From: Bilabrum cf. latius
Taxonomy: Eukaryota
Length of the DNA: 64,000 nt
Direction: 5' to 3'
Assembly: GCA_965178125.1 (NCBI GenBank)
Contig: OZ237738.1
Coordinates: forward strand, 992,001 to 1,056,000
Shown one piece after another: positions 18,662 to 50,300 of this stretch (the stretch's first letter is position 1; each line of letters opens with the position of its first letter). The position numbers were made by a program, and so were the translations under genes. Below the pieces are notes generated by a model. That model saw nothing but the letters and a program-made list of their open reading frames with translations. It was not told the origin of the DNA and did not search any database.

Positions 18662-18785
18662 CGGCCGTGTGCATGCATTGAATACACATGATTAACGTAG
18701 GAGTGCACGGAAGCGTGGATTAATTGGACTCATTGAACTCATTGTAGCCTGCAGGTAGCCTGCAACACGCCCACCCGACTTCGGC

Positions 18786-19666
18786 TTACACCTCGTTCGA
18801 TACCCTATTAAACTGATTACTGGCCTACCCTCTGGCTTCCCGGGCGCCCGCCTCTACATCGTCTCGCGATTTCTCAAAAGCATTCTATATGCCAAACTCC
18901 GTGAAGCGAGACAGCCTCAGGTTGGCACTCTGCAAGAAGTTGCCGTTGGCGTCTGTCCCCGTCCATCCGACGTACAGCTTCAAATCGCAATTGGCGTTGT
19001 CGGCACCGCACTCATCTTCTGTCGTTTCGCAAGAGCGAAAGCCCTGCTCCTGGTCTAGCGATCCAGCCGTGGCATTGTACTAATTCTGCACGCAGCCCTT
19101 GCCGTCGCAGAGGTCGCACCCCTCGTCAAACGTCACGGATTCAGGCACGCCGTCGATCATCTGAATCAATACAGTGTACACATTGATTCGCTTTGTCACC
19201 GATACCGCACCGGTGCTGCTGTTGGTAAACTCCACAAACACCTTGCTCCGAGACCTTGCGCTGAAGCTCTGGACATCGAACGTGATGGCGTAATCCTAGC
19301 CCGCGCTCCCCTGTGAAACCCATCCTCCACCTACTTCGTAATAGCCTGATGCATCCGGCAAGGCATCCGCACCTGCGGATATGAAAGGAGGCTTGTCTTG
19401 CTTGGAGCCCGCATCAATCACGGAAATATTGCTGCACATGGCGAATCAGGCGCTCTCTCACTATTATCGATTGTAATAAGGCTAAAATCATCCAGCTTTG
19501 GAGTAAAAAGGGCCCGTCTTCTCCCGTTGAACGTGATACAAACGTACGTTGTCTCTCCAATCTCCTGAGCGCCACTGCCTCCGGTGCCGCATACGGCGGC
19601 AGCTGGAGGCTCCACCTAGCCGAGCACAGATGATATCGATGCAATGACGGCGATACGGTACAGCAT
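18786..19666 (-). CDS. Secreted Cys-containing hypothetical protein, 2 exons
   Basis: Signal peptide MLYRIAVIASISSVLG followed by TAG. Intron at 19373-19461. Exon 2 is open for 194 codons if TAG (19296, 19080, 18885, 18825) is sense and contains CDLKLYVGWTGTDANGNFLQSANLRLSRF. Ends at TAA. Confidence 0.75.
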
Positions 19667-19878
19667 GATGGATCAGTGGCCTCTTTTCCCGAACGTTGCC
19701 GGAGACTGCGGTGGTAGGGTGCTGTCGCGGCGCCGCGCATAAAAATCCGACTTCAAGTCGGCGCGATCCAAGAACTGGCGTAGCGGAATCTACCACAAGG
19801 CCCGGAGGAAGACTTGGAGCCTTACTGCTCGAGAAAGTCGCAAAAGCCGATACTTGTGGATGACCTTGTCGTCTTGAG

Positions 19879-21088
19879 ATGGCAAGCAGTGGCGGAGGCG
19901 ATAATCTTGGCAGGTCACGGTCCACCCGCTCGATGGTGCTTAAGAGACGGCTAGCGATGCTAGGCTTCAAGGGCGTCGGTGAGTGTTGGGTGTGCGTGCG
20001 CAGCAAGAGCGATTCGGCGGCAGATACTACCTGTCGATGCGAAACATCGCAGGCCGTGATGTGGGCATGCACCCGCTGCCGCGTCCGTTGTCGACCTCTG
20101 TGTTGCATTCACACTTCTTTACGTTGTGGCGCAGGCAAGTCCTCAATCACAAGACGATTCGTAGAATAGACTTTTGATGATACGTACGAGCCAACCATTC
20201 TTGGTACCTACAGACGGGAGTTCACCGTGCGTGGAGCGAAAGTCGAGGCTGAAATTGTTGATACTGCAGGCATAGATGAGAGCAGCCGCATCCCAAAGGA
20301 TGCCGCAGTCGGCGTTCACGGCTATGTGCTAGTGTACGACGTTACCAACCGGGTCAGCTTTGAGCAGGTGAGCCTTGGTGCGTGCAAATGGAGTGATCAT
20401 GTGATAGCGTTGCTGGAACAGTGGTGGCGACTTGCAGCACAAGCAGTCAGCGTACTGCTAGAAACATGTTTGCAATTGTGCACGTACAGCATACCATGCA
20501 GTGGTTCTTGGCGGTGGAAGGCCTCGCCACAGCTCTCCGCTGGCACTGCCTGCAGCAGCCTTGCCTCCGGTCCCGCCTCCGGCATCGGCCCGGCAGTTCG
20601 ACTGTGCCGGTTTTGCTCCACATTAGGCCCAAGTATCCGCTCGTAGACCACACCATCTCAAGGGAACTACCACAGCATGACAGCCGCGGTTTACTTTCGG
20701 CCTGAGCTCCCCGCCACTTTCTCCACGCGCGCAGGTATCACATATCAACGACATGTTGCTCGACACGGTCGGAGCAGACGCCGTCCCACGGGTGCTCGTA
20801 GCGAATAAAGCAGACCTTGAGGCAGACGTTGCCGTGGGAAAGGCAGAGGGGCAGCGGCTGGCAACTGAGCTGGGCTGCCCCTTCCTGTACATGTCGGCGA
20901 GGACCGATGGCGATGTCAGCCTCGACAGCGTCTTTCAGACCCTGCTGCTTGAAGTTGATGGAGAAAACGGAAGTGGGGTCCTACCGGACGTCTCCAAGGA
21001 GGCGGCGTAGCCCCCTTCGCAAGGTGGCTCTGCCGGTGCTAACAAGGCTAGCTCCGGCTCCGGCGGAGGTATCTGCATGATTCTGTGA
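19879..21088 (+). CDS. RHEB: Rheb-like Ras-family small GTPase, 3 exons
   Basis: Motifs MLGFKGVG|KSS, YEPTI, DTAG, GVHGYVLVY, VANKADL, MSAR. Introns at 19979-20134 and 20368-20734. TAG at 20167 and 21008. C-terminal CaaX CMIL then TGA. Confidence 0.88.
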
Positions 21089-21221
21089 TGAGCCGTTCCT
21101 TATTGAAGGCTCTCAAGTGCTCTGCAGTGGCGTATGTGCGGTCCAGAAGCGTTCGCATGCGATGAACAGGAATATATCCAGATTTTACAACCTTCTGAAG
21201 TACGTCGGATGCAATGATATC

Positions 21222-21476
21222 TTACGCCTGTATTCCACTGATTTGCGTCTAAGTCACGAGAGCACCGATCACTATCTCATTTCTGAGTTCATCCAGCGCA
21301 TCATCTAGCCTGTCAACATCCTTCTCGAGGCGCGAGGTGGCCTTCTCTGTTCTAACGGTTGCACGCGCCGCCGGATCCCCCATTTTGCCTGATGATTGAC
21401 CTACTGCTGCCCTAGCAGCTGCATACGTCCTTGCACTAGGGTACTCTCTTTCAAACCGAAGCCTGGCGGTTGACAT
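21222..21476 (-). CDS. Small hypothetical coiled-coil protein
   Basis: About 84 aa with heptad-like RLEKDVDRLDDALDELRNE. One TAG at 21249. Ends at TAA. No recognisable family. Confidence 0.4.
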
Positions 21477-21633
21477 GCGATGTCGCGTAGAGGATGGTAT
21501 TGGCATGCAAGCCGCCCCAAGTTTTGAACGTTTTGACCTACCCACAGTGGACTGCACCTTCCATCGACGCCCAAATCGAACCTGTATCGCCTTGTGTTCG
21601 CTGTGATATCACTATAGTAACATTAGCACCCAA

Positions 21634-24600
21634 TCACAGTCGCGTTTCAAACGAGTAGAAGCCACTCAGAGTGCGCACTTTCACGAAGTCCCCCTCGGCC
21701 TCCGCACTCAGCACCCCGGGTGAGGCACCCGGCTGGAATGCCCCATGCGACCAGATGATGTTGCCCATGTCTGTGACCACCATATCATCGGGGATGCCCG
21801 ACCCCGCCTCGGGTCGAGGGACGTACACGACTCCCGTGCTTGTGGGCGGGATCGTCACGCGCACGCTCACCGCACCGCTGGCTGCCGCGCCGCTGGTCCC
21901 ATTACCGCGCTCCCAATAGGCCATCACGCTGCCGCGAGACGAGGCCAGCGTGACCCTGGCCCCCAGCACATTCTGCTGCTTCCCAGTCGACAGGGCTGCC
22001 TCGGGCTTCACTTCCACCACGGCCCAGCCAGCCGAGGTGGGGTCGCTGCACGCACCCTCTGCCTCTGCTGACTTCAAGCACCGCGGCATGTCCAGGCCCA
22101 CCACGTGCTTCCGGAGGAAACTGGCGATGTTGGTCTGGTAGTGGTGCGAACGGGATGACTCGGCCACCCACTGGCGGGTCGTGTCACCGTTCCAAGACTC
22201 CCACAGAGAGGTGGAGGGCTCGAACGCGTTGAACACCTGGTACCCATACCCAGGGTACTTGGTGCGGAGCAGCGCCTGTACCGCCGCCCCCGTGCGATTG
22301 GACCACACCAGCGCCTCGAAGATGTAGCTCGCGCCAAGGAAGCCCACCGTCACGCCGTTCTGCAGCAGGTCGGCAGCGAGGGAGTCGGCGACCGAGCCGC
22401 GGGTGGACTCGGGAACGGCGCCCAGCCACAGTGCTATGGCCTGAGCAGTCTGCGAGCCCACGCTGCAGGTACCGTTGGAAGCATGCCAGAACGTGCTCGT
22501 GAACTCAGCCAGAGCATCTCGGGCCGCCAGCTGGAAGGCTTGCTCCTCTGCGGTCTTGCCCAGGGCTGCAGACAGCTCCGCCGCGTACCGCAGGTCTCGA
22601 ATGAAGGATGCAGACGCCGTGACCTCGCACGGAGTGTGTGCGAGGCTCTGATGGTCCCCCCACAGGCAGTAGATGTGTGCCATCCCACTGGCCTTCACGC
22701 TGGCTTGGAGCGTGCCCATGTACTGCAGCAGGAGGTCGTAGTGCTGGGCGACGGCCCCCGTGTCGTTCGTGTACCTCCACGCGTTCCACAGGATGGTGGG
22801 GAACACGGTGTTCCAGGAAGGGTCCATGCTCGCCCCGGAGCAAGTGCTCGGGTCGTTCCAGTCCGACATGCCGTCCCTGTCCGGGTCCGACATGGGTATG
22901 CTATGCGGTATGGTGCCATCGGACCAGCATGCCACGTCGTGGATTTGCTCCAGGTACTGGCTGAACAGAGCACCCGTGTCAAAGTCGAAGAACTCTTGCT
23001 CGGAGGCGATGGCGGCGTCCCCGGTCCACCCGCCCCGCTCCCCGCGCCCTGCGGCCCCGCTGGGAATCCCCATGAGCCCGCTGGCCTCTGTCCACCAGGA
23101 GTTGTTGTAGATGCGCTGCAGGGTCGGGTGGGCGATCCGCACGTCGGACTACTCGGCTGCGTCAGTCCTGACGTTGATCCCGAGGAGGGTGCTGCGGTTG
23201 ATCTGCGCCGCGATCGCAGCCGGCAGCGGTGGGGACGCGCTGAGCTCGACGTACCGGAACCCGTGGAAGGAGAACCTGGTTTCGTACGAGGCAGGCGCGG
23301 ACTCCCCTGCGAGTCCAGTCTGGTACACGTCGATGGGGCGCGCCCAGAAGAGATTCCCAGTATATGCGCTGCCGTCATACTGGGCAACCACGTCTGTGGA
23401 CTTACCGTTGACCACCTGCTTTAGGGGCGGGTGTCCCAGCACCTCTGTGTGACTCAACGTGATGTTGGTGCCCGCCGGGATCCCCGCGGGCAGAGCCAGC
23501 CTCACGTGTCCAGAGAACTCCTAGCCGAAATCGAAGGTCCATCGCGGAGGATTCGCGGGGGCCGAGGCACCTGGCTTGGCAAGCACCCGTCGCACGGTAA
23601 GCGGCTGCATCTCACGCACTGCTCGAATGGGCTGCTGCATCTGCGACTGTAACCACGGCTGGCCCGGTGACCCGGGAACGCCGCCGGGAACTGGCACTGC
23701 CGGGGCCCAGGCCCGCCCGGGCAAAGGCTTGAAGTCCGTGGTGGCCCAGCCCGGCTGTTCCCAGTCCGCGATGTAGTACTCGCCGTTGTAGGCCGACTCA
23801 TACGAGAGCGGGCTCTGCCCATGCTCCCAGCTCCCGTCCGTCACCACCGCCAGAACCGGTACCTAGCTCCCGTTGGACGCGTGTGCTGCCAGACGCAGGA
23901 TGGCCTGTCTCGTGCCCGTGTTGTTGGGGGCTGCGCGCGCTTCCCCGCAGAAGCCCTGTCCCACCCACAGGCCAAGAGCGTGCTTGCCCGGTGTCAGAGT
24001 GGAGGGGTCCAACGAGTACGTGGCGTAGGTTCGATTCCGGTTGAACCGGGTCCAAGTCACATCCAGTTGCCTGTCCCCCACCCTGGCCCCATCCAGGTAC
24101 AGCTCGTAGTACTGGCACGCCCCCACGAATATGGACACTCTGCCGATGTCCAGGCCGGCAGGCACGTCGAACTCCTTGCGAAGGAGACCCCCGCTGCAGT
24201 TCCCGAACCCAAGGGCGGTGTGCTCCACCATGGCAGGCGCCGTGCACGCCCCCGCATGCACCCAGCGGGCCGGCGCCCACTCGCTGTGGGATAGCAGCCC
24301 AGTGGTGAAATGCGCAGGGTCTGATGTGTACGCTGTTGCCGCTGCGAATCCGCCCACTGGATGCTGGTTGGGCTGCAGGGCCGGGGGGGCGGCGCCTCGA
24401 GGAAGAGAACCTGAAGGAGCCACGGGGCTACCCTGCCACACCGTCACTGTCCAGTAGTACGACTGGTCGGAAGACAGCGGGAGGTTGCCGTCGGGCCGAA
24501 ACACCGGATTGCTTGAGCCGTTCACGATGCCCGATGTCCAGACAAGCGATCCGGTCGAGTTGCTCATGACGCGGACCTGAAACGCGGTCTGTGCGTCTTG

Positions 24601-25158
24601 GGGCCGGAACCGGTCCAAGGGGTGCAACAAAGGCACTATCCACGAAAACATGGGCCTGAGGGTGTCTATTCCAAGCGCTGGAGCTGGCAGGTGCTACAAT
24701 TTGAGACCGGAGGGTTTCTGGACGGGCTGCGGAGGGAGCGGATCTTGGCCAAGAGGCTTATCACAAACAACCGATACCGTCAGATTCTTGCGAATTCCAT
24801 TGCACGGGTACACGGGGACCGCACTCGAAAGACCGTCCTTGTTCGAGCAGCTGCATGCCGGATCCCGTATCGCGTCGCATGAGCACTGCACCGAGCACTC
24901 TGCTGATCCCAAGCACAGGAGGCGCACCGGCGCGACCAGATCAACGGGACACTACTGCGTGATTACAGCATCTGGACACTTGGATCCCGGGCTAAATGCC
25001 CCGAACTAGGCATTTAGCACCCTTGATACGACCTGGCCCGATGGGCACTTCAAATCAGTCGTTTGCCCTTCGCTGACAAAGTCACAGAGAGAGGCTCCGG
25101 CAACAGCAGCATACGATACTAGAAGAAATATACACGCGAGACATACTCTAGCATCCAT
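21634..25158 (-). CDS. Secreted GH78 alpha-L-rhamnosidase-like glycosidase with N-terminal SUEL-type lectin-like domain
   Basis: Signal peptide; Cys-rich LKCPSGQVVSRVLNA(TAG)FG; LGIDTLRPMFSW; FDFG(TAG)EFSG; RFSFHGFRYVE; ERGGWTGDA; WGDH; TSLWESW; SRSHH. One frame with 6 TAGs. Ends at TGA. Confidence 0.88.
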
Positions 25159-25430
25159 GCTAGATGACCCTGGAGTTGCTCGGTTGCCGTTGACAGGTCC
25201 TGAATGTTGCGTGCCAATATCAAAACTCAGTCTGGACCCGTCGCGGACACTTCCATCGAGAACCGGTGCATTCTTGTGCATTTATTCGTTCCATTATCGG
25301 TGAGATTTGCAAGTTTGATCACAGATACGAAGAGAACTAGGTCAATATTGTGTTCGGTTACTCTATGTAGGAAAAATCTTTAAGAACGCTAGTGCAACTG
25401 CTTCTACGCAGGGGTTCTACTGCAGCCGAA

Positions 25431-28181
25431 ATGAGCGGGAAGACCAGCTATGTCGACAAACAGCTTGAAGACATCATGAAGAATCCCGCATAGGGTTTGG
25501 TCTACCGTGGCAAGGCCAAGAAGGTTCCGTCCACTCTGGTGAGCCGCAGACGAATTGCCGCTGAGACGCAATCCCGCCGGCATGCCACATGGAAGCCCAT
25601 GAAATCATCGCGAGCCAGCAGGCGAGAAGAGCGCAAGCGCAAAGCTGCCGCTCGGCGGCAGCGATGGATGCTCGAGGGTCTGCCACCTGGCGTGTCGGAG
25701 TCCACGGCGCAGTACATCCAGGGCATGCTCGGGGGTGCAAAGATTGGCTCCGTCGTGCCAGTATCTTCGCACAAAGCCATGGCAAAGCAACCGGCCTCCC
25801 CTGCGATGTCATCTGCAAGTTCAGGGCGGCTGGGAAGCACGGTATCCACCGCCTCCATCCGAGCGTCCAGCGCATCCTCTGCTGATGGCAGCGAAGCAGA
25901 CGCAGGCTCTGCCCTTGCAGACGGACTCGAGTTCATGAGCATCGGACGCTTGTCCATGCGGGACCAGTCCGGCTCGGTGTCTGATTTCAGCGGCCCCAGC
26001 GACACTGAGAGCGCCGGGAGCAGCTCTCCTGTAGCGATGGGGCACTCGCGGGGCCTAGTCGAAAACGAAGTCCCTGCCGGTGGTGTCTCTGCCGCTGCTG
26101 TTGCTTGTGCGACACCAACGAAAGAAGGCATGCGTGACCAAGCCGCTCCAGCGGCACAGCGCGTCCAAGAAGGTGCCCGGGCGCGGCACGCTGCGGCAAT
26201 TGCGAGCCGAGGCAGCCGCGTGCGCAAGAGCCGAGAGAGCGCCGACAAGAGCCGCCTCAGGCAGCAGGCCGAGAAAGAGGCGATGCAGGCCGAGATTGCC
26301 GATCTCCGGACTCAGCTGGCTGCGAGCAAGGCCACTTGTACCCAGCTCGAGATCAGGAACGGAGCCCTCGCGGGACACGTCCACACCCTATCGCAGCTGC
26401 TGCAGCGAGCGATCGGTAGCAGCGCGGCAGGCGGGGTGTACGGGCCTGGAACCACAGCTGCAGCTTTTCACGCGATGCAGGCCGCTGGCAGCAGCATCCA
26501 GTCGGAGTCTTCCTCTTGCGCTGGAGTGCCGGCCGCACCCGCGCCGGGCCAGAAGCGCCGGCGGGACTCGGAAGCCGGCAGAGTCGAGCTTGCGAACGAT
26601 ATTATGCTAGCAGCTGCAGCCCAAGGTAGGCCCACCTACCGTTCCATGGCAGGTTCTTCGAGCCAGCGTGCGATGGAAGATGGGTCAGACTGCGCTTTGT
26701 GCACGGCCCCGCTGCGGATCAGGGCACCCTCGGACAGCTCGCTGGCGAGCTCCCTGCCCCACCCCAGCGATGTCTTCGCAGCCGATGGCCAAGCCAAGCT
26801 AGAAACAGATGCAGCAGGCTGGTCTGTGCCCGGTAGTCCGTCCTCCTCCATCCTTGCTGCGGCCATGGTGTGCGCAGAGAGCAGCACCAGCTCCAGCTCC
26901 AGCCCCAGCAGTCGATTCTGCACGGGCCTGTCCCCGATCTCCGACCTGCCGCTTGCACACGGTGCTGCATCGCCTGCACCGTTCTGTGGCCGCGACGACT
27001 CCGCGAATAGCCCGGCACTGGGACGCACAGGATAGGAGTCGCCGTCCTGGATGCGATTTGGGAGGGACGAGGCATTCGGGCATGGGCACGGGGCAGGCTC
27101 CGAGGCAGGTAGGACGAGCACGATGCATCCATGGGAGCCCGCTTGGCTAGGCTCCAGGGGAGGCGATTGCACGGCGTCTTTTGAGCCGACCGAGGCTGGC
27201 GGGCAGCTGGGCTGCTCAAGTGCCTTTGCTGCTGGGCTCGATGGAACTGGGTCCGTGCCGGCAGGGTCACCGAGTGCAGCCATGTCACCTATTGGATCGG
27301 TTATGCAAGGTGTGGAGCAGGGGGGGCTGAATGAATACGTTAGGGGCGTTGGTGGGGATGAAGAGGACAACACCGTCGCGAAGTGGTCCGAAGTAGCGGG
27401 TGACGACGACGAAGCGCCACGCGCTCCCAAGCGACGCCGCATCGCTGGTGGAGTTGGAGTTGCATCGCACCACTTGGGACTGGTGCTGGCATGTGTGGCG
27501 TGCTGCTTGTCCGTGCTGCACGGCCCGCAGCAGATGGGGCACGTCTCTCTGGCAGTTGGGGCAGGCAGCGCCCCAGCTCAGGCCTTTCGACCCATTGCTC
27601 AAGGGGGCACCAGTGGGGGCCAGGGTCGCCCCGGTGCGGGTGACTTCCGGCTGCTCAGCGTCGAGGTCAATGCGGAGGCCGATGGTGCTGACATTGGGCC
27701 GCAGTTCGTGTCCGAGGCGGGCCTCCACTCCCGGCACCCGAGCCTTGTTGACCCATCGGGTGCCGGCGGGGCTCCCATGGTGGAGTGGCAGTGGCAGGGG
27801 CTCATGCAGGCCCACGGCCTGACTTGGAGCTTTCACCCAGTGGCCGCTGTGGAGCGGATCGTCGGCAATTCCCTCGTTGGGGATGGTGCCGTCGGACAAA
27901 CCTGGGGGCAGCATGCCTCCGGTGGAGAGTCTTCGGCCGAGACGTGGTACGTGGTTCGGTTGGCTGCAGCGGTGATGGCCGTGCTAGTCTGCTTTGGAGA
28001 GGTGTGTGAGGGAGCGTGCAAGGATGCGTGTAGGGGTGCTATAGGTGCGTGGGGCTTGGCGCGTCGTGCGTGCGGGTTCTGCCAAGGAGCCTGCATGGAG
28101 CTGTGCGGCTGCCAGGGCGAGCACAGCTCGGCCGCCAGCCCATCGCGCGGGGCGAGGAGGAGACGCTTGCCGAGCTTTTGA
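25431..28181 (+). CDS. bZIP transcription factor with C-terminal hydrophobic (putative transmembrane) segments
   Basis: Basic region RVRKSRESADKSRLRQ plus a Leu heptad zipper (~26215-26400). Hydrophobic stretches LGLVLACVACCLSVL and WYVVRLAAAVMAVLVCF. TAG at 25491 and 27033. Ends at TGA. Confidence 0.7.
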
Positions 28182-28415
28182 GTATGCACTGGTCACAGAA
28201 ATTAGTTTCAACAGTCACGCAGAACCATATTGCAACGCGACCAAGCAATGATAGCGAAGCCGGAACCGGCGCCGGCGTGATGAGGTGTCCTGTCGGGTGG
28301 GTCTGGTGAGTTGCCCACTTGGCGAACGATGGACCGCAATGATACGCAGGGGCAGGCGATCGCGCGCGAGACAGGTGACTAGCCTCCTCAACGTATTCCA
28401 TTCTCTCCCGAATAC

Positions 28416-30401
28416 ATGTACGATGCAGAGAGTGAGAACTTTGCAGCGTACGTTGGAGTGATGCAGACTGTTTCGCAAAGCGGAACACGCTGGCACCGTC
28501 GACCGTTCGCCCTTCCTTGCTCGCTTGCAGGTATCGTGTATGCGTGGTTGACAATGTTTGCGCTTCGCATGGTGTACGCTAACTCGCGGTCCATGCTGGC
28601 ATACGTTGCCCCGCTCCGAACCGCCCTATTGAAGGAGAGACAGATTCGCGCAATGGGGACCTACATAGCGGAGATTGCGACCACAACGGTATCTTTGATA
28701 TCATGCATGTCTGTAGGAAGTGGAATATACTTCAATTGGGAGCTACAGGTCTTCACAATGACGGAAACGCAGTAAGTAGCGCATAACGCTAACCCGAGGC
28801 TCAAACCTTGCTAATGCATGACGCACAGTACTTCTCCTCTATTCAGAGTAGTGCAGGAGATATACACTTGTACTCAACTATGTGTTCTTGATGTCAATGT
28901 ATGCCAGCGAGATTCTGTATCGACCAACCATGGTAAGTTGCAGCTGATTCGGTCCGGTCCACCTTCGGCTGTTCGCCCTCCCGCAGTGCTTCATGAGACT
29001 ATCGGTCATCCCTTGTCTTCCATGCAGCCCATCCAACTCCAAGTACACCACTATGCATCGATAGCGATCGCCATATTGCACGGGATTGCGTTCCAGAAGA
29101 CGTTGCACGGCATGCACTTCCGATTAATGGCGTACGCCGTCCTGTTTATGATTACCGAGCAGTCTGCATTTGTTGCTCTGATTTACTTTAGAATGCGATG
29201 GACCGGGTCCAGGTTTTGGTTCAGGTTTGCGGCCGTCTAGACTGCCGTCACGAAGGTGGCAATCACGGCTGTCCTGATTGCCCAGTACACAATCCACTTC
29301 AACGATGAGATGCCAGCGGAATCGGTTGGGCGCGCCAGAAGCGACCAGGAAATGGTTGAGGCTGCGTAGGATTGGGCCAGAACGTTCCGAATTATGTACC
29401 CAATCGTGCTGACCTTGCTTGTCGCAGCCCAGGCATCCGGCACCTGGATCATGTGGCAGCTTTCCCTTCGCTCCGACGTGGCCAAGACCGATTAGCAGAT
29501 CGAGTTGCAAGTGCGGCTGCTCGAAAGGATGAAGGAAATAGAAGAGAGGGAGGCAAAGTCACTGGGGGGTGGGCAGGATGCCAGGACCATGATCGCTGCG
29601 CCGGTCACGCCGAGCATCGTGGAGGACGAGCAAGGCGTGGTCGCAGGTCCCAACGGCACTGATGGCCTCCGGTCGCACGACGCGCCGTGGAGGAAATTCG
29701 AGCCGAGCCAGCTGAGCATCATCCCTCACAACAAGAGGCATTTCTCCGTTGCGTCCCCCAGAGCACTCCGCCCCGCGGGCTCCATGGGCCAGATTGAGGT
29801 GGCCACGGGCACGGGAACTTCTTCCTCGTTTGGCGATGCAGCGGCGGGCACTCCGCGTGGCAACGGGAGCAGCAGGAGATGTAGGCAACCGGGCGGCGCC
29901 CCAGTGGGCCCCTCAAGCACCAGAATAGGCAGGGAACACAAGAGCACGGCGAGCATGGACACTGGCCTGAAGCGGTTCCGGTTTCAAGGGGAGAGCATGG
30001 AGCAGGTGCTCGGCGCTCAGGCTGCTGACACTAGCGGCACGGCTGCATCAGGGAGCGCAACGGGGGACAGCGCATATCGGGAGGCTGCCTCGTTTCGTGC
30101 ACCGCGAAAGAAGGGAGCAGAGGGCGGCGGGCGGCCAGCCAAGGGAGGCAGCAGCCGCAATGGAACAGGTGCCTCGCACCGCGGCGGCGGAGCGAGTACT
30201 TCCGGGCGCAAACCGTTCGAAGGATCAACACGGGGTGCGGCTGGCGGGCCAAGCGTGCCAGGTATGTTGCAATTAGGCCCCACGCGGAAGCAGTCAGAGG
30301 CAGGGGTCCCAACGACGGTAGGAGCAGGGGTGATCCCAGCGAACGGCTCGAATTCGAGCACGTGGAGCCATGCAGGGCTGCTGCGGGGGGGCCATCCGTG
30401 A
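28416..30401 (+). CDS. Multi-pass membrane protein (TLC-domain-like) with low-complexity tail
   Basis: Several hydrophobic helices, LQVHHYASIAI and TEQSAFVALIYFR. Intron at 28772-28846 and possibly 28933-28986. TAG at 29238, 29367 and 29493. The 5' structure is uncertain. Confidence 0.6.
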
Positions 30402-30588
30402 GTGTACTGCAGGTCGTGGCATGAACCTGCATAATGCAAATTCAAATCGATCGAATTTGAGCTGTACAGGTGCCTTACCAGATCCAAAGTTTGCACCGAC
30501 GAATCTGTATTTTCGTTCGGGTTGCGAGTACCTTCGTCCGAAAACTGGCAAAGTCATTCTTCACCTAGTTTCGTGTCAACATTGAGCA

Positions 30589-32985
30589 ATGTCATATCTT
30601 CCAGCAACAAGAAAGTCGAGACTACCAGGAGGATCATCTGGAGATGCTTACTTTGACGAGATATCTTCAAGGGTTCAGTCGCGGTTCCGTTCGCAACGGT
30701 CACCTGAAGTTTCCCCAGGAACGCAGCGTGCGTACAAGGCACGTGATGAAGTCGATGCACGGTTGGGACATATTGCATCTAGAGGTACTGTGGGAGGCAG
30801 GCAGTCTCGAACGGGGGAAAGGTACGGTTTGTCAAGGCAAGTCGACCCAGACACATACTTTGGCTTCGCTGCACAGCGTGGGCCCACCAGGTTGCCAGCC
30901 CCGCAAGACCCTAGCTACGGTGCAGGTAGAAGTGCACAGATGGGATCCGCCGGCAGCGGCCGCCGGTTGGGCGGGTTGGCGAGAACCGGGGCGTCAGCCT
31001 CGGGCAGCACCATGTCCCGCTCCACTGTCGGGTCTGCTCGACCGAAATCCCGAGCGTCCGAAGTATCTTCTCAGAAGACTGGCACTGACCACGATTTCTA
31101 TGGATTAGAAACCGGATCTGGCCTGCCTGACTCCGGGCGCCGCGGAAGCGGGCTCCTCCGTGGAGCCGGCGAAAGGCAGCTATTGGGAACTTCCGCCGCG
31201 GCAGTGGCTGCAGCAGCCGCGACAAAGGCAACTAGTGGTGGAGAAGCCACGTACAGGTATGGGAGGAGGGTCCGCGGAGAGCCTTCCTCCGCCTCATCGA
31301 GCGTGGCGGCCGCAGCGGTCCGTGGCGGTGTCGGTATGGGTTAGGGTGCCAGCCACGCGCGGGCCGGGGCGTACGCACACCCCAGCGCATCGTATTCCAA
31401 CTCTAGCTCCACGCTCGACGGATCGTACGGATCCAGCTCCAGGAGACGCACTGCAATGGAGCCCACTGCACCCGGCCACAGCGGGGCCACAGCAGGCGGG
31501 CGAGAGAGGGGCCCCGGGTCTGGGTCTGGGTCTGGGTCTAGGTCTGAGTCTGGCCGTGGTTCTGGCTCCGGGTCGCTCACCGGTGATCCAAGGTTGTAGA
31601 ACTTGTATGGTCGCTCTAGAACGGGCGCGTCTGTCCCGGCCATCGAAGCGGAGCCAGCGGGTGATTCCATGGGTGACGATGCGAGGCCGAGCAGAAGCAG
31701 GGGAGGGGGCGGGCGGGCCGGCCGGGGCACAGGCACGGGCACGGGTAGGGGGTCGGATGCGGGTACAGCTTCCAGGGCATCGAGCGCAGCACCTAGCGGT
31801 CGGGGTGGCGTGGTGGTGCCGATCGGGGCAAGGGTGGGCAGTCCTCGCGGGCTGGTGGGTCTTCAGAACGAGGGCAACACGTGCTTCCTCAACAGCGTGC
31901 TGCAGTGCCTCAGCAACGTCCCCGAGCTGACGGGCATGTTCCTGGCAGGGTCCCCCAAGGTCAACCCGGGGTCTGAAACTCGGGGCAGGCTTGCCATGGC
32001 CTACGGCGACCTGATCCGATCCATGTGGTCAGAGTCGTCTGCGCGGCACCCCATGGCCACATGCCAGCGGCCCTCCGCCGTCAAGAGCGTGGTGGGGCGG
32101 GTGGCTCGCAGGTTTCTAGGGTACGAGCAGCAGGACGCGCACGAGTTTCTGCGGTTCTGCTTGGAGACGCTCAACCAGGACCTGAGGCGAGGCAGGGGCA
32201 AGCCTCCCTTCCGCGAGATGAAGGACCCAGCTGACGCCGCCGACTCCAAGGTGGCCAATGCGTGGTGGGCCTACGACGAGGAGAGGGAGGGCTCCCCTAT
32301 TCGGGACATATTCGCGGGGCAACTCAGGGGCGCGGTGGAGTGCCAGAGGTGCGGGTACCTGTCGCGGTCCTTCGATGCCGTGTGGGACCTGCAGCTGCCC
32401 ATCCCCCGCAAGGCGCAGAAATCGGGGGGCGGGGGCCTGTTCGGGTTCGGGTCTCGGTCCTCGGGGGGCAAGGGCTGTTCCCTGTCGGACTGTCTGGACG
32501 AGTACACTGGAGAGGAGAGGATGCGGGGGGAGGGCACGTGGCGGTGCGCCAAGTGTAAGGCGAGCGACAGCGTCAGGAGGACACAGCTGTGGAGGCTGCC
32601 CACCGTGCTGGTGCTGCAGTTCAAGCGCTTCACGTTCTCCACGTTCCGGAGGTCCAAGGTGAGCACGTCGGTGGCGCTGCCCGGCAAGGCACTAGACCTG
32701 GGGCCGTATTTGGCGAGGGGAGCTCCCGGGGCGGGGCCTGGGCGCAGGCCCGTGTACGAGCTCGTGGGGGCCTCCAACCACTCGGGCAGCATCCACGGGG
32801 GACACTACACCGCGGACTGTAGGAACCACGACGATGGGAGGTGGTATCGCTTCAACGACTCCCACGTGTCGTCCTCCAACGGGGTCAGTGGCAGCGCCGC
32901 CTACATTGCGTTCTATCGGCTCGCTGACGCGGATGGGGCCGCTTCAGGGCGTTCTGGCGGCAAATCGTCGGGGGCGCGACTGTGA
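30589..32985 (+). CDS. Ubiquitin-specific protease (peptidase C19, USP2/USP21-like)
   Basis: Cys box GLQNEGNTCFLNSVLQCL, QQDAHEFL, His box SNHSGSIHGGHYTA, WYRFNDS. The disordered N-terminus is joined through TAGs at 31342 and 31597. Confidence 0.92.
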
Positions 32986-33073
32986 TTGAGTGAACAGGTG
33001 CCCATGAATACTATTTCGGCGTAAGGAATTCCCATCATGCAACGTTGAGCAGTCTTGACGCGGTACACTCCAA

Positions 33074-33415
33074 TCACTTTCGCTGCTCAGCCAATTGCTG
33101 CTCCAGAGCAGATACACGCTTCCTTAGCTCCCTGTTCGAATCTACCACATCGGCATGCAAAGCTTTGAGCACCTTCTGAGTCTGCACGGTTGAATCCCAC
33201 ACTTCTTCCCGCAAGTAGTAGGCTCCAACAGCTCCCCCGAGAGCCATGCCAACCAAAAAGGCCCCCATTCGACCGAACACCGTTGACCCGCCGCGTTGAA
33301 CCACAACTGGAGCTGGCTTGGGAGCAGCAGCAGAAGCCTAGGTTGAACTCGTGGCCGAAGTAACTGAACCACTGCTGGAATCCTTCTGTACAGCCGGAGC
33401 TGTCTCGGTCGCCAT
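33074..33415 (-). CDS. Small single-pass membrane protein with C-terminal coiled coil
   Basis: TM segment RMGAFLVGMALGGAVGAYYL followed by a heptad tail. ATG 33415 is reached through one TAG. Ends at TGA. Confidence 0.65.
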
Positions 33416-33705
33416 AGGCCTGATCGCAAGGCGACGGAACTTCTATGCAGAGCGACCCACCGACGCCACAGATCGACGGATAGATGATCTCATGCTCTGG
33501 TGCAACTGCTATGTACTTTACTGAGTCAAACGCAGCGCAGGATGCCAAAATATCGCCCAAGCACCGAGGTGTGATTATACCACATTATGCACGTTACCAT
33601 CGGATTCAGATCCGGAGCTGGAATCTCGAGAGAAACAATAAAGACATGCTCGCCTCCACAGCAGCACACTGAAGCATTGTAAGTTGTTTAGATAATACAT
33701 TTCGA

Positions 33706-35637: not shown

Positions 35638-35835
35638 TCCAGATGACCTTTCGCAGCGGTGCTAGACTGGGTGCTGCATTGCAGCAAGCTCAGAGGATGG
35701 GTCTACCTACCTAGCATTCGGAAATGCTCAGAATTTGAACCAGAGCGAACCTTTCATGACTTGGTGTGACTCGGCTGTTCAATATCAACTCGTATGGGCC
35801 TGGATACATCCACGGGCAGCTCTGGCCCGAGAGAC

Positions 35836-38316
35836 TTACCCCCTCCTTCGCCGCTTAGACGCAGCCGGCTTGGAGCTCGTCTCGCTCGCCTCTGCCCGGC
35901 TGCGCTTGCGGCCTGCCGTTGCATGTGCCGCTGCGGCTTCATTCTCGTCACCCTCTTCCTCGCTGGCCTGCAGTAGGGCAGCGCCGTCGTACGGCCCCTT
36001 GTCCTTGGCCGGCTTGGCCGAGTCTGACACTAGCGCCACGATGTGCTGCCCGCCGATCGTCACGTGCAGCACGGCCCGACCGCCCCACCTCCCCCCCTGT
36101 GCCTTGCTGGTATCGAATGGTACGGCCTCGTCCCGCATGGCCCCATTGCCCAGCTGCGCGAGGTCGCCAAATCCCCATGCGAACAGCCTCCCGCTCCGGG
36201 TCACCGCTGCAGACACTGTGCTCCCCGCTGCCACCTGCATCACTGCCTCGCCTCCGAATCTATCCCGGGGAATGACCCTCGGTTCTGCCAGCTGCGCGCT
36301 CACGGGCGCCTTCTCCTGGCTGGAGGAGCCCAGGCCCAGCTGCCCCGAGTCGCCCCTCCCGCACACGATCACGTCGCCTGCCCGGGTGAGTGCCAGCAGG
36401 TGGGCCTTGGAGGGTGCCAGCTGCACCACGCCCTTTCCTGACAGCGCCTCGGCCACTTGAAAGCTGTCTAGGTTGGGACCCACTCCCACACCCAGCTGGT
36501 TGTAGTGGTTGTGGCCCGTCGCCATGACCCGCCCGCAACGAGTCAGTACGTAGGTGCTGTACCCCCCCGCAGCCACTCTCGCCGCCAGCACCTTCTTGCG
36601 GCGCCCAGCCTCCCTCCTCCACAGCGGCACCACGACCGCCTCCCAGGCCAGCATGGACTCGCTCCTCCTGCGCATCACCGCCTCAGGCCTCCCCAGCTGC
36701 CCCACGTGACCCAGCCCCCAGGTCAGCACCTTGCCGCTGGCGGTCGCAAACACGGCGTGGTCGTACCCAGCCGCCACCTGCACCACCCGCCCATGCCTCC
36801 TCACGCCCGGTACCTCCACGAGGAACGGCATCATCTGGACTTCAGGAGACACGCCGAATCGCCCCTCGGGCCCCTTGAGCCGACCGCACACGTATACGCG
36901 CCCTCGTGAGTCCAGCACCACCGTGAACGCATCCCCGCAGCCCACGCTCACCACCTTGCCAGACCCGTCCAGGGGAGGCAGCTGGTCGTGCCTGCCTGCC
37001 TCCAGCAAGTACCTATAGACGGGGTCCTGGCTCGCCTCGGCTGAGGAAGAGGAAGAGGAAGAGGCAGAGGATGCGGCCGATCGCCTGCCCTTGCCCCTCC
37101 CCGCGGCAGTCCCGGCAGCGGCAGAAGCATGGCCGCTCAGGTCCCTTGACAGCTGCGCAGCCATGGGATGCGGTACCCCGAATCCCACCATGGGCTGGGG
37201 AAGGACACCACGAGACTTGCGGCCCAGCTGGCCCTCGTCGTTGCAGCCCCAGGACACGGCCGTGCCATCTGCCAGCACCGCCACCGTGTGCATCCCTCCT
37301 GCAGTCGCGAACACTGCGGGCTCCTTGCAGTGCTCGGGCTGCAGGGCAGGCACCAGCTTGGCGTGCTCCAGATACAGGTCGCCGTCCTCGTCCTCGTCCT
37401 CGTCCTCGTCGCCATCCGACTCGAAGCCAGAACCGGAAGCGGCACTGGCGCTAGGCCCGCTCTTTGCCTTCCCCTTGCCCTTCTGGCCCGAGGCGGCAGC
37501 AGCAGGGGGCGGGGCCATGCCCAGCTGGTCGCACTCGCCAGAGCCCCACCCCCACGGCCGACCGGCGGCTCCCAGCTCCGCGGCCCTCCTCAGAGAACGT
37601 TCGCTGTGCAACAGCGAGGCAACAGCGCCGGTTATCTGTGTGTCGGCATCGACCGCGCCTGGCACATTCTGCCCCCGCGCGACAAAGTACGCGAGCAGCT
37701 CCTCCATGGACGGGCCCTCCTGCTCCTCGCCCTGCTGCTCGCTCTCCCCCGCGCCGCTCGCAGGCTGTCCCGCCCACAAGTCATCGCCAGCCCCCTGGCC
37801 CTCATTGCTGGAGCTGGCCTTAGCGCCCAGCCCCCAGGGGTCATCTCCGGCACCTGCTGGTGCTGGGGCCGGGGCTCCCGTTCCCCACGGATCGGACGAA
37901 TTCGAAGCCGACGCGGAACTCGCAGACGACGAGGACGACGACGCAGAGGCACTCTAGGACGACGAACCAAAATCACCCCATCCATCCGCTGAGGCTGCAG
38001 CACTAGATGAGCTCGAGCTTCCACCGCCTGATCCAAAATCGCCCCAACCATCGTTGTTGGCACCGCTCGATTCGGTCGAGGCAGCCTTAGCTCCGGGCTA
38101 GACAGTTTCACAGGAAGGACACATATCGGCCTCTTTGTCAATCATGAGCATACAGCTCGGGCACCTGCGAGGCGTGATGTGGTGACAGCATCATGAAAGC
38201 AGCAATAGTCCATGCGGCCCCTGATGGACTGCTTTGAGCATTCTGCCCCCTTACTCCTTCTAGTCCGGTCTATTTTCTCCATATTTACCAAGCAGTTCAG
38301 CACCCCAGCCACTCAT
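35836..38316 (-). CDS. RCC1-repeat protein with N-terminal RanBP2-type zinc finger and C-terminal basic NLS
   Basis: RCC1 repeats AGGMHTVAV..SWGCNDEGQLGR, GCGDAFTVVL, TWGLGHVGQLGR, GRGDSGQLGLG, IGGQH. N-terminal CPSC-x10-CPSC is formed after splicing intron 38165-38254. TAG at 38260, ~38099 and ~37954. Ends KRRRRG then TAA. Confidence 0.82.
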
Positions 38317-38432
38317 GCTTGATTGGCGCAAAATATGCGGTTTCGCGCTTTTTTGGCAGCACAGACTCGTCACATCAAGAGCACGGCGAGAAAAAGGGTA
38401 CATCCAGCCAATCCAGTCGCTCGTGAAGAATA

Positions 38433-39632
38433 ATGTCGGGCCGAATTGATTTGAGAGTATTCTTAGAGCAGCTTACACGGGGAGAGGCGTTGGATTAGGC
38501 GCAGGCATCCGAAGTTTGCGGCGCCATTGCGGATGGCAAGGCGGATCCAATCCAAGTAGCAGCACTTCTGGCCCTCATATAGAGCGTCAAAGCAAATGCC
38601 GCAACTGTAGCAGGTTTTGCGGAAGCGATGCGAGCTCGATGCAATCACGTTAGCCTGGGTGGTGGCCGACCAGTCGTGGACATTGTAGGCACTGGCGGCG
38701 ATGGACACAACACGGTCAACATCAGCACATCTGCCGCGATCGTTGCAGCCAGCTGTGGTGCCACAGTGGCAAAGCATGGAAGCGTTAGCGTTTCATCGCG
38801 ATCAGGATCAGCCGACGTGTTAAAGGCGCTGGGAATCCGCATGCTCGCTCCGCCTGACATTGCTCCGTGCGTGGAGCGTTGCGGAATGGCCTTTATGTTT
38901 GCCCCAAAGTTTCATCCGGCAATGCGCCACGTGGTGCCGATCCGAAAATCGCTCAAGATCCGAACGATATTCAACATCCTTGGCCCCCTGTTGAACCCGG
39001 CGGGCGCGCAGCGCCTCATGCTCGGCGTGTACCACCCAGACCTGCTGCCGATCTACGGCAAAGCGCTCGAAGCACTGGGCGTAGAGCACGCCGTGGTGGT
39101 GCACTGCGGCTCCTTGGACGAGCTTGCACCCATAGGGACTGCCTCTGTGCTTGAGGTGAAGAGGGGTCAGCCCTCGGTGCAGCGCGAGGTGGACATGCTG
39201 TCCATGGGGGTCCCCGCCTGCACCATCAAGGACCTCGAGGGGGGCGAGCCCGAGGAAAACGCTGCCATCATCCGGAAGGTGCTGGCAGGCAATGCGGAGG
39301 GTAGGGAACAACACATCGCGAACACCATCGCGATCAACGCGGGCGCTGCACTATACGTGGCTGGCCTGTGCCCCGGCATCAAGGAGGGCACTGCCATGGC
39401 CCTAGAATCCATCAAGGCGGGCAAGCCAGCTGGCACCCTGGAGGCGTGGGCCAAAGCAACCTAGGATCTAGAAGATGCCACGCTGGCCAAAGAAGCATCA
39501 GCCAAGGGAGATGGCGTGGCAGCCGCGGGTGCGGCGGCGGGGGGCGCCGGGTCCGGTGAGGCCCCTGCCAAGCGACCCAGGACCGGAGAGGGGGCCGCGA
39601 CTGGGGCAGGGGCAGGAAGCAAACCCTCGTGA
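38433..39632 (+). CDS. trpD: Anthranilate phosphoribosyltransferase
   Basis: Motifs DIVGTGGDGHNTVNIST, VAKHGS..SSRSGSADVL, FAPKFHPAMRHV, RTIFNILGPLLNP, LDE, NAGAAL. The N-terminal helical domain is recovered through two TAGs; a third TAG lies at 39462. Ends at TGA. Confidence 0.93.
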
Positions 39633-39759
39633 CTTGATCTCATGATGATTTGTGATGTTAACAATTGAGAGTAAACTCGAAAAGTCGGAATGGCTGTGAT
39701 TGATGCTCATGCACGGCAATGACCAACAGCAGCAAAGAGGACGCATCCTCCCCACTTGC

Positions 39760-44032: not shown

Positions 44033-44715
44033 AGCAAGCCTTGCAAAGAGGCCTTTCCGTCTAGATCGCGGGGACTTCAAGCTACAGACCTCGTAAATAC
44101 AATATGAGTTTGTGTCGTCGTATCCCAGCGAATTCACAACAGACTTGAATGCACCCCAAAAATTGCCTGCGCAGGAACCGGCAGCACCCGCTGCCAGTCG
44201 GGCACACCTGGTCGCAAATCGGCTTCAGGCTGGCAATGGGAGGTTGGTGAGGTGCTCTTTGCGCAGCCTGCCGAAATCCCCGTAACGTATGGCGCCTAAA
44301 TATCAAACTATCATGCAGTTTGCAAGTTCGTACCCATGACGTATTGCGGTCTTGTTCGTGCCCGAGCAAGACACAGGACCGTCAAGTTCGCCGATTCCGA
44401 ACGAACATTCGCTGAGCTCGATAAAGAAATCGCGACGCACAGCAATCAATCGCGATCTGCCCATCACCGTTCGCGTTCCCCAGATACTAAAGCAGTTTTG
44501 GGGGATACCGGTGCCACAGCGACCGCTGTGGTTGGGTGCGAGGGCTTGTCCCGCAACAACCCGCCTGTTTGGATTTCTACTTTTACTATGTTAGGTGTTC
44601 TACCGCACAGTACGAGTAGTTTTTCGGATTTTCGAGTTGTGTGTTTGTTACACTATCGTGAATTGCATCTTAAACCAGAATTTCCTTCCTTCCTTCCTTC
44701 ACAGCTGCCGTAGCT

Positions 44716-46833: not shown

Positions 46834-47105
46834 CGCGTTCGTATTCGTACGCATCCGGACGCTGCACACACACCAGCAGTTCTTGTTACCACAGGGGGAC
46901 AACAGAAAGAGTTGCCTGAACGCACCATTGCTGCTGATTGCCGTCATCCGGGACAAATTTGGCTCCACCAAATGGCTAGGCGAACGAGCACATGCACAGT
47001 ACTACCGTGAAAGTGGACCAGGGGGGCTACACTGCCCCCTCTTCAGACAAGCCGGTCTCATCATGTGATCCTGATCCTGCGCGACCCAACACGGACTCGC
47101 TGCAG

Positions 47106-47161
47106 CACAGCAGTCGTCGACCTCTCGTTGAAACACAGCAAGCGTCGACCTCTCGTTGGAT
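47106..47161. repeat. Short imperfect tandem repeat (2 x ~28 nt) in an intergenic region
   Basis: CACAGCA..CGTCGACCTCTCGTTG occurs twice in succession. Confidence 0.6.
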
Positions 47162-47370
47162 AAGGCGTTGCGGCATCGAGGAGGATAGCGCCGACTGTGT
47201 GGCAGCTTTTGTGTCCAGCTGACTCGCGGATTCGGACTCCGAATCCAGCAGCAGTGCTGCTGGCGCATGACAACACTACACATCCTTGGCTACACTACGC
47301 ACCTCATATAACACCTCTAAGCAACCACGCATTCAATGTTCGGATGACACCGCGCCTCTTAGCAGCTGCC

Positions 47371-50300
47371 TTACCCCACACCACCTCCGGCTCCACCGAC
47401 AGCCTGGAAGTGTTCCTTGATAGATCCGGGCCTATCGGCATCTCGAACGGGTGGCTTAAGCGGCACCATCGTGAGGAAGCCAGGCGGGCATGCCTGCTGC
47501 ACATCATTACTGATAGGGTGCGGAGTGATGAGGATGAACTGGTGTCCCGACATGTTCGGCGCCCCGCCCACGCTACGCGCAGCCCCCACCAGCCGCTTGA
47601 GGGCTACTTGCCGCGTTGTCTCATCCATGAACACGTCAAACTCATCCAGCACCCTCCACGGCAGCTCCACGTTCTTTGCGATGGCCATCAGCAGGCTGGT
47701 TGACGTGAGCGACTTCTCGCCTCCCGACATCTGGGCGGTGGACGCGCTGTGCCGCTCGACTCTACGGCGCTTCCTCCCCAGGACACTACCGTGGCCCTCC
47801 TCGTCTGCCAGTGGTGACCCAGGTGATGACTTACCCTGCTGGCTGCGATGAATCGCATGCTGCTCTTCCTAGGAGAACATCCTCTCGTTGGGCAGCACAT
47901 CCATCTCCAGCAGGCCTCCAGTGAGCTTGTCCTCGTCGTCATCAGACTCCAACTCATACTTGCTAGCGATCTTGCCCCGTCGGCCGGCAGACTTACGCCC
48001 TTTGCGAGCGAGCTTGCCCTACCTTTCGGCCAGCTCTCTCCCATAGACGAATCTTATTTCCCCGGAGTGGCCAGATTTGCGCATCTCACCCCTGAATTCC
48101 TCCACGATGTTTCTGCTGATGGCCAAAAACTTCGACCGCATGTCTTTGCGTCTGGCTGCGCCGGCCCGGGAGGACTCCGCGGCGGTGCGGCGAATGATCC
48201 TGGCTTGATCTGCGGCCTCTTCGTGCTTGGCATGGGCGCGATCGTAAGCAGCCTTGGCCTCAGCGGCCTCGTTGGGATCGTATCCCCGCCTCCGCAGGTT
48301 GGCGTCTCTCCGGGCCTTCAGCTCCTGCAGGCGGCGCCTGGCTTCAGACTCAGACGTGACGTCGGCCCGCCTCAGATCCATGCCACAGGTTGCCGCCTCT
48401 CGCTTTAGGTCACCAATGGCCTTCTTGATGTCGTCTCGCTCCCTCTGTACGTCTCCCAGCTTGATACCGATGGCGTTGTCTTTCCTATGGATGGCCTGGG
48501 CGCACTTGCGGACTCTTCCCTCGAGAGCCTACTGCTCGCTGGCAAGCCTCGACATGACCTGGTCGATCTCGGCGATCTGCCGCGCGCGGCTGTCGTCTTC
48601 TTGCAACGACTTGACCTGGCCTAGGATGTCCTTCTCGGCCTCTCGCCGGCTCTCCAAGGCCGCTCGTCTGGACCTTTCTTCCACCTGGTGCTTCTCGATC
48701 CTCTCCTGTACCTCAAGCTCACTCTCTTCCAGCTCCAGAATCCTCGACATGGTGTCCTCGTCGACTCCCTTGTCTGCTTCGCGCTTGGCCGATTCCAGCG
48801 CCCGATTCGTCTTGCTCAGTCCGTCCTTAGCCTGCTCGAGGCGTCCACGCGTGGTGGCCAGCTACCGCCTAGCATTCTTGTCATCCAGCGTGAGGGTGGC
48901 TACGTTCTTGCTCAGCACATTCTGCTGCACCCTACAGCTCGCCAGCTCATCACGCGCAGTCTCTAGGCTTTCTTGAGCCGCCCTTGCCTGTTCCTCTACC
49001 GATAGGCTAAATCTAGGCATGTGAGAGTCTGTTGTCCACGTCGGAGCACCCTTAATCCTGAAACCTGACGCGCCAGACCTCATCACAGCGGAGCCGTCGT
49101 CCAAATATGCTGCGAGGATGGACCGTTCCTTGTCCTGCTGCAGAATCACTCTGCCCTCATGAGGTGTATCAACGAGGATGCATCTGTGCAGGTTGCTGCC
49201 TCCCATAAGTGCCTGCTCCGCGATGCATGCAGGGTCCACGCCTGCCAGCCCGTCCGCACCGATGGCTAGTCCGCCCGGAGCATTCAGCTCCACGACATCC
49301 GAGATTCGCAGCAGCCCTTGCCCCTTTACCACACTACTAGCGAATTTCGCTTTCACTTCCCCTGGCCCCATGACCCGCCGCACAGCCACGAGCTTGACGC
49401 CATGTGCCGCCTGCCGTAGCGCTGCATTCTGAAACGTGCCAAGCACCCGATATTCAAACAGCTGGTCCAGCATCGCAGCTGCAATCGCCAGTTGCCATCT
49501 TCGGTTGTCTTGCCCGGCCTTAAGCTGCACGAATGCCCCCAGTGGACCAACGGGCTATGCCCCGCCTTCACCCCCACTGCCAGCGCTAGCTCCAGCGCGC
49601 TGCTTCTCAAAGTGCCTCCGCAGAGCCCTGTATTGCGAGACCTTGCGGCCGCTAGGATCCAGCCCCAGGATCCGCCCCTCGATCCCTTTCATGTCCTGAG
49701 TCTGTATCTACCGTAGCACGTCTTGGTATCGATTCACGTCCTCCGCTTTGGACGTCTACATCCGCTTCGCCTAGCGAAGCTCCTCTGCTGCGTTTCGCAG
49801 CTACAAAGCCACAGCCTCTTGCCTTTCAGAGGCATTCATCACCTCGCCATCTAGCTATACAACAGCGTCTCGCTGCTGCCTCGCCTGCTCTTCCAGCCTT
49901 GCGATCTCCTGCTCAAGTTCCGGCCTCCGCCCCACCTGCTGCCTGTGCTCCTCCAGCTGCTCCTTCAGGCGGTAGAACCGGGCCTGCGACGCCACCTTTC
50001 TCTTGGCCTCCCGCTCCAAGCTGGTTTTTGCTTTTTTTGATGCTGCCTAGGCCCCTTCGAGCTTCGCACCCAGCTCTGCGAGCTGCCGGTTGTGCTCCTC
50101 CTGCGATTCGTTCACTCCCTACATCCTCTCCTCTTGGACCCCTATGCTCGCCTTGATCTACTCGACCTGCTTCAGCAGACGGGGTTGCTCCTCATGCAGC
50201 CCCTTACCGTCCTTCTTCATTGCATCCAGCACGCCTTCAGCGCTCTCCAGCTGATCCTTCCTCTCCACCAACCTGGCACGCTTCAGCTGCACAGCGGCAG

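Follow-up and report, generated by a model that had tools for sequence, protein, structure and literature searches.

The 64,000-nucleotide stretch of DNA analyzed here (the window; Bilabrum cf. latius, contig OZ237738.1 of assembly GCA_965178125.1, positions 992,001 to 1,056,000 of the forward strand) very likely uses a genetic code in which UAG specifies an amino acid, most likely glutamine (Gln), UGA is the main stop codon, and UAA is a minor stop codon, corresponding to the NCBI translation table 15 type. The observations support three statements: TAG specifies an amino acid, TAA does not, and genes are closed by TAA at the positions where homologous proteins end. The code tests cover the 64-kb window, in which three TAA ends are supported. 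The DNA is nuclear and comes from an intron-poor, gene-dense eukaryote rich in G+C. The G+C content (GC) of the window is 61%, and its long open reading frames (ORFs) require TAG to be read through.

The 24 ORF models in the window (16,314 codons) contain 97 TAG, no TAA, and no TGA codons in frame, in agreement with the initial annotation of this DNA, which had described many internal TAGs and no internal TAA. The in-frame TAGs are spread along the ORFs and make up 13% of Gln-type codons (97/752) if they are counted as Gln. In a refined set, in which the exon borders are reset to the RNA-supported introns described below, 91 TAG and no TAA are in frame among 15,753 codons. The two non-coding frames of the same DNA contain 91 TAA, about 45 per frame. 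CAA is common, as had also been noted earlier, accounting for 144 of the 655 CAR codons in the 24 models (21%; 0.207); GAA is 28% of GAR, and AAA is 25% of AAR. With TAA used at the same rate as CAA (share 0.207), the refined set would be expected to contain about 24 TAA codons, and the probability of finding none is 6.5e-10. The models end at TGA in 21 of the 24 cases and at TAA in the other three (18786, 35836, and 47371).

Because the ORF models are bounded by TAA by construction, the window was rescanned with TGA as the sole stop. No real gene fuses with further coding sequence in the rescan, and the gains are short 5' leaders or 3' tails. Of the ORFs bounded by TGA, 15 that contain TAA were read by table 6, and no Pfam domain spans a TAA in any of them. 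The presence of 97 in-frame TAGs in 24 ORFs bearing conserved domains indicates that UAG is a sense codon. Zero TAA in frame against about 24 expected, together with the lack of a Pfam domain across a TAA, indicates that UAA is not.

Three of the in-frame TAGs are located on columns occupied by Gln in homologues.

10564..10566, + strand: TAG at residue 848 of the FO synthase, Gln column
23521..23523, − strand: TAG at residue 587 of the GH78 alpha-L-rhamnosidase, Gln column
58803..58805, − strand: TAG at residue 21 of a GUCD1-like (PF09778) protein, Gln column

All 31 top homologues have Gln in the column at residue 848 of the FO synthase, and the 45 homologues that align there include 36 with Gln and six with glutamate (Glu). 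Residue 587 of the rhamnosidase corresponds to the Gln of the 'FGQN' motif in all three solved rhamnosidases. In the GUCD1-like protein, residue 21 is aligned with Gln in 23 of 23 homologues and is positioned six residues ahead of the cysteine in 'WDCG'. We take this spacing to be that of the oxyanion-hole Gln of papain/C39-type enzymes, six residues before the catalytic cysteine. A BLOSUM-weighted score for the meaning of TAG over 11 aligned columns is highest for Gln (6.71), followed by Glu (4.07) and serine (2.31). This score took the place of a frequency-based likelihood over nine columns, which was judged uninformative: eight of the nine columns vary, and an occupancy filter had removed the CofG column, which is near-invariant and occupied in 45 of 120 rows. 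Judging from these alignments, Gln is the most likely reading of UAG, with Glu as the runner-up.

The gene ends bearing on the role of UAA, and the nearby end of a Ras-family gene, are as follows.

18786..18788, − strand: TAA stop of a gene for a secreted cysteine-rich protein (RNA-derived contigs, homologue ends)
18789..19372, − strand: last exon of the same gene, with in-frame TAG at 19296, 19080, 18885, and 18825
35836..35838, − strand: TAA stop of the RCC1-repeat gene (35836-38151; RNA-derived contig)
47371..47373, − strand: TAA stop of SMC6 (homologous C-termini; last exon 47371-50961)
47359..47361, − strand: second in-frame TAA, four codons past the SMC6 stop (sequence)
21222..21224, − strand: TAA closing a small ORF (unsupported)
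21086..21091, + strand: TGA TGA directly following CMIL, the CaaX box of the Ras-family gene (clean TGA stop)

SMC6 carries its Walker-A exon upstream, near 51000-51600. In a PDB sequence search, the residues after the last aligned SMC6 motif number 44 here, 36 in human, and 29 in yeast, so that the end at TAA agrees with the human and yeast C-termini to about 8-15 residues. Reading through this TAA would append approximately 460 codons, running through 537 nt of intergenic spacer and then along SHQ1 in antisense, and the coding-type GC1/2/3 pattern disappears past the TAA. The second in-frame TAA at 47359, pointed out in the initial annotation, is present. A word-indexed protein search with SMC6 gave no scoring hit among 8000 candidates.

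The gene ending at 18786 has 494 homologues at E ≤ 0.001. Nineteen of the 29 aligned homologues terminate within six residues of its end, and the remainder have longer tails. A second in-frame TAA follows at 18720-18722, and the nearest in-frame TGA is not reached until 18345. The gene is highly covered, and two RNA-derived contigs (18729-19369 in run X6 and 18713-19369 in run X7) cross the TAA unspliced and stop 57-73 nt past it, far short of the TGA at 18345. The intron upstream of the last exon (19373-19461, GTGAGA...GCAG) is found as a joint in all three RNA-type runs and is absent from the DNA run. The ATG at 19439, earlier assigned to this gene, is inside that intron; the true start is upstream. 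The comparison of homologous C-termini suggested in the initial annotation thus bears out the TAA ends of both SMC6 and the 18786 gene: judged by sequence comparison, these genes stop at UAA about where their homologues stop.

The RCC1-repeat gene is less clear-cut. Its C-terminus is not placeable by homology because the tail is of low complexity. The nearest in-frame TGA is 17 codons beyond the TAA, at 35785. Since this TGA lies inside the X5 contig that covers the gene end, the case for a stop at the RCC1 TAA is carried solely by the general absence of sense TAA. GC in the 100 nt past the three TAA stops is 0.51-0.54, and a similar drop is seen past most TGA stops.

Four models had initially been described as ending at TAA. 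Those at 18786, 35836, and 47371 stand, and that at 21222 does not. The latter closes a small ORF that has 128 codons at most (84 amino acids from the second Met) and no Pfam match at E ≤ 0.1; it is not the end of the Ras gene, which closes with TGA TGA. The stretch 21202-21624 containing this ORF is nearly without cover in runs X5-X7, and no conclusion is drawn from it. The Ras introns 19979-20134 and 20368-20734 are present in the RNA-type runs.

The flanks of the TAA codons should be noted. All four TAA ends described initially (18786, 21222, 35836, and 47371) are in a G-TAA-G context, namely GTAAGC, GTAAGA, GTAAGT, and GTAAGG, and no other TAA context is as frequent in the window as GTAAG (35/402). 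Because GTAAG resembles a 5' splice donor, a splicing test of the TAA ends was needed. Contigs (Logan) of four public runs were placed on 17200-37199. Run X1 spans this stretch in full with no joint, as a DNA run would. Runs X5-X7 contain GT..AG joints and behave as RNA; none of them is recorded as RNA, and their type was guessed and then judged from splicing. Nine introns of 85-367 nt are supported by RNA. Their donors are GTGAG in seven and GTAAGT in two, and the acceptors are GCAG in all nine. The joints in X5-X7 define the following introns.

17335-17450, 19373-19461, 19979-20134, and 20368-20734 (alternative 20368-20501)
25300-25411, 28432-28530, 28772-28856, and 28933-29027

The RNA-derived contigs cross both 18786 and 35836 unspliced, and the splice-donor reading is therefore rejected at these two ends. 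The crossing at 35836 is provided by X5 record 14 (35752-37199), which has no joint at the RCC1 GTAAGT.

A relative was found on a metagenome contig, L001. A first metagenome scan with the 18786 protein gave 252 pattern matches, none of which was confirmed, and L001 was obtained by a second scan using an alignment. L001:1-2031 (GC 0.54) carries an orthologue of the 18786 gene with 78% protein identity and retains the convergent pair of a kinesin tail and the secreted-protein gene, as in the window. Five TAGs and no TAA are in frame on L001, and both genes end at TGA. The TGA of the orthologue is positioned six codons earlier than the TAA in the window. When the codons of the window and L001 are paired, TAG is opposite CAG three times. 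UGA terminates in all these cases, including 21 of the 24 model ends, the Ras end, and both L001 genes, and none of the 24 models has it in frame.

Several observations weigh against the assignment of UAG to Gln and of UAA to termination, and they are considered here with the alternatives that they favor. As for the meaning of UAG, the frequency-based likelihood, judged uninformative as described above, ranked alanine first. TAG is aligned to Glu in kinesin-1, in TrpD (2/2 shown), in column 60 of the FO synthase (61/116), and in column 254 of GUCD1 (9/22), and it is opposite GAG three times in the orthologue on L001. Together with the second place of Glu in the BLOSUM-weighted score, these alignments are what would be expected if UAG encoded Glu with UAA and UGA as stops, a combination that, to our knowledge, has not been reported. 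The Glu-rich columns are, however, variable, and exchange between Gln and Glu is common, while TAG occupies the invariant or near-invariant Gln columns described above (23/23, 31/31 among top homologues, and 3/3). We consider the Glu assignment improbable. UAG might instead be dual, being sense within genes and a stop near some 3' ends, like the stop codons of Condylostoma or UAA in Blastocrithidia. TrpD (38433-39632, + strand) has a TAG at residue 344, close to the ends of solved homologues (about 345-350), SHQ1 has a TAG one codon ahead of its TGA, and a hand count puts five TAGs within 20 codons of the model ends, against about 2.7 expected. This excess is not significant, and the TAG positions are spread along the ORFs. 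In TrpD, the TAG is followed by a 55-residue tail rich in alanine and glycine with a GC of 0.715, and GC drops to approximately 0.45-0.5 only past the TGA, as it does at true ends. UAA is never sense in the window. UAG may act as a stop in some genes, residue 344 of TrpD being the site in point, although no positive evidence points to it. We regard a dual UAG as very improbable.

As for UAA, the supported TAA ends are only three in 64 kb; SMC6, the best of them by homology, is outside the stretch 17200-37199 on which the contigs were placed; and in the RCC1-repeat gene, a stop at TAA and read-through to TGA are separated by neither homology nor transcript extent. UAA and UAG could both encode Gln, as in the table 6-like codes of Amoeboaphelidium and hexamitins, with TAA being rare through GC bias, all genes ending at TGA, and the three TAA ends being read through. 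The genome is indeed GC-rich, TAA is less frequent than the other two triplets, counted over both strands (402 against 922 TAG and 1558 TGA), and read-through of RCC1 costs just 16 extra residues before TGA. Nevertheless, this reading has to account for zero TAA beside 91 TAG where about 24 would be expected from the CAA share, and for the lack of any in-frame TAA at a Gln position or within a Pfam domain. It also requires the long read-through of SMC6, in which the coding GC pattern is gone, and, at 18786, a read-through as far as the TGA at 18345, past the ends of the RNA-derived contigs, in a gene whose orthologue on L001 stops even earlier. We give it very little credence. The remaining alternative is that the TAA 'stops' are GTAAG donors of 3'-terminal introns, with the real last exons downstream and ended by TGA, so that UAA would be unused and its meaning undefined. 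GTAAG flanks every TAA end, an unexplained excess over the approximately 0.14 per site that the TGA stop contexts predict; GTAAGT is a genuine donor in two of the nine RNA-supported introns; and Logan contigs are able to miss a minor spliced isoform. On the other hand, the contigs are unspliced across 18786 in two runs and across 35836 in one, in runs that splice neighboring introns, and the runs crossing 18786 do splice that gene's own upstream intron. The C-termini at 18786 and 47371 already agree with those of homologues without any further exon. An intron at these sites is therefore most unlikely, and the GTAAG flanks may reflect a favored termination context or chance.

With UAG read as Gln and UAA kept as a stop, a plausible mechanism can be proposed. 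UAG would be decoded by a tRNA-Gln with a CUA anticodon, which would be unable to pair with UAA, and eRF1 would recognize UAG weakly or no longer at all but would still recognize UAA and UGA. CUA is described as the only anticodon able to read UAG without also reading UAA, and changes in eRF1 have been proposed for Iotanema and the rhizarian exLh; the codon-recognition motifs of eRF1 are given in the same source as GTS, NIKS, and YxCxxxF (PMC5304391). No tRNA gene was found within the 64-kb window, and the eRF1 gene is absent from it. In human numbering, the relevant eRF1 substitutions are T32G in Iotanema and L69A in exLh. The combination of tRNA-Gln(CUA) and an altered eRF1, already put forward in the initial annotation, is a reasonable inference. 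The other parts of that interpretation, that TAG is sense, that TAA is not, and that TAA is a stop at homologous C-termini, are borne out by the data.

Both strands of the window carry typical eukaryotic genes, as identified by a Pfam search. The identified set includes the following.

Kinesin, Ras-family GTPase, SMC6, USP-type ubiquitin hydrolase, RCC1-repeat protein, and SHQ1
Protein kinase, PHD/PDZ protein, TrpD, cobalamin adenosyltransferase, CofH-CofG FO synthase, GH78 rhamnosidase, and others

The named homologues of the window proteins are chytrid, animal, green-algal, dinoflagellate, and Paulinella sequences. The FO synthase gene (8023-11112, + strand) encodes a 1029-amino acid CofH-CofG fusion, an enzyme for a chromophore or F420 precursor, in a eukaryote. 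Its best homologues are unnamed and show only 45-46% identity, and the named ones are from dinoflagellates, Phaeothamnion, and Paulinella. The GH78 alpha-L-rhamnosidase (21634-25281, − strand) has a SUEL/rhamnose-binding lectin domain at the N-terminus, and a hydrophobic stretch close to the N-terminus may be a signal peptide. The enzyme might act on algal cell-wall sugars.

In the USP gene, the word depth at 31207-31873 (+ strand) is 153 in the DNA run, compared with 13.9 elsewhere, and contig breaks cluster at 31513-31549. The simple repeat coding for glycine, serine, and arginine within this gene seems to have many genomic copies. GC drops to 0.50 in the 4-kb bin 56001-60000, compared with approximately 0.60 elsewhere; the bin contains the spacer 3' of the SDR gene (GC of the 3' flank, 0.34) and the GUCD1-like gene. 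A small unannotated gene at 33077-33500 (− strand) is covered by an RNA-derived X7 contig (33032-33535) and ends at TGA. Its product is predicted to contain a single hydrophobic helix, has a coiled-coil tail, and gives no Pfam match.

UAG and UAA nearly always change meaning together, and each independent decoupling of the two tests the idea of a joint constraint by eRF1. In the present case, genomic DNA and RNA data are available for a GC-rich genome with UGA as the main stop, so that the predicted tRNA-Gln(CUA) and the eRF1 changes should be directly readable and comparison with Iotanema and ciliates is possible. For gene prediction, the standard code fragments the genes and table 6 over-extends three of them; table 15 is advised. 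We suggest only tentatively that the window represents a lineage with no earlier report of a variant code: a GC-rich protist, neither ciliate nor metamonad, found alongside algal and protist samples, in which the reassignment of UAG is clade-wide (shared with the relative of 78% identity), UGA is the main stop, and every UAA stop seen is in the strong G-UAA-G context. If this holds, the organism would be the most tractable system for UAG/UAA decoupling, the genome and RNA data being public.

Apart from the cases named here, full-text literature searches gave no report of a GC-rich non-ciliate in which UAG alone is Gln. The earliest reports of a reassignment of UAG alone, with UAA kept as a stop, date from 2017 and concern Iotanema (Gln) and exLh, a rhizarian (leucine) (PMC5304391). 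Later cases are Scotinosphaera (serine), Protocruzia, and phyllopharyngean ciliates (Gln, leucine) (PMC11687900). Iotanema spirale (Fornicata), as presented by Panek et al. 2017 (PMC5304391), is similar to the window in that UAG alone has become Gln and the UAA stop is kept. UAG is a minority Gln codon in both (approximately 8% in Iotanema and 13%, 97/752, in the window), and the tRNA-Gln(CUA) and altered eRF1 proposed there match the mechanism proposed here. The two differ in the primary stop, which according to that paper is UAA in Iotanema and is TGA in the window (21/24), and in the material, since Iotanema is known from the transcriptome of an anaerobic endobiont, whereas the window is GC-rich genomic DNA with spliced RNA evidence. 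There is no sign of kinship between the two.

The phyllopharyngeans Hartmannula sinica and Trochilia petrani, and Protocruzia tuzeti, are reported to read UAG as Gln (table 15), as in the window (McGowan et al. 2024, PMC11687900). The tests described in that study, based on where homologues end and on how UAG is distributed along genes, are of the same kind as those used here. In those ciliates, 93.5-100% of aligned C-termini are given as falling on UAA (PMC11687900), unlike in the TGA-dominated window. In our judgment, the window genes do not look ciliate-like, with their 61% GC and spliceosomal introns of the GTGAG...GCAG type. The nuclear genomes of exLh and Scotinosphaera, which are not ciliates, separate UAG from UAA as the window does, and the amino acid differs (PMC5304391, PMC11687900); leucine and serine do not fit the invariant Gln columns of the window. 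In the table 6 code, attributed to many ciliates, hexamitins, ulvophytes, and Amoeboaphelidium, UAG is Gln as in the window, but UAA is Gln as well (PMC6299283, PMC5304391). The Amoeboaphelidium genomes are listed at approximately 40% GC (PMC10608142, Table 1), compared with 61% in the window, and on this composition Amoeboaphelidium is rejected as its source. The type of code described here is already published, and the window is a further case of the reassignment of UAG alone.

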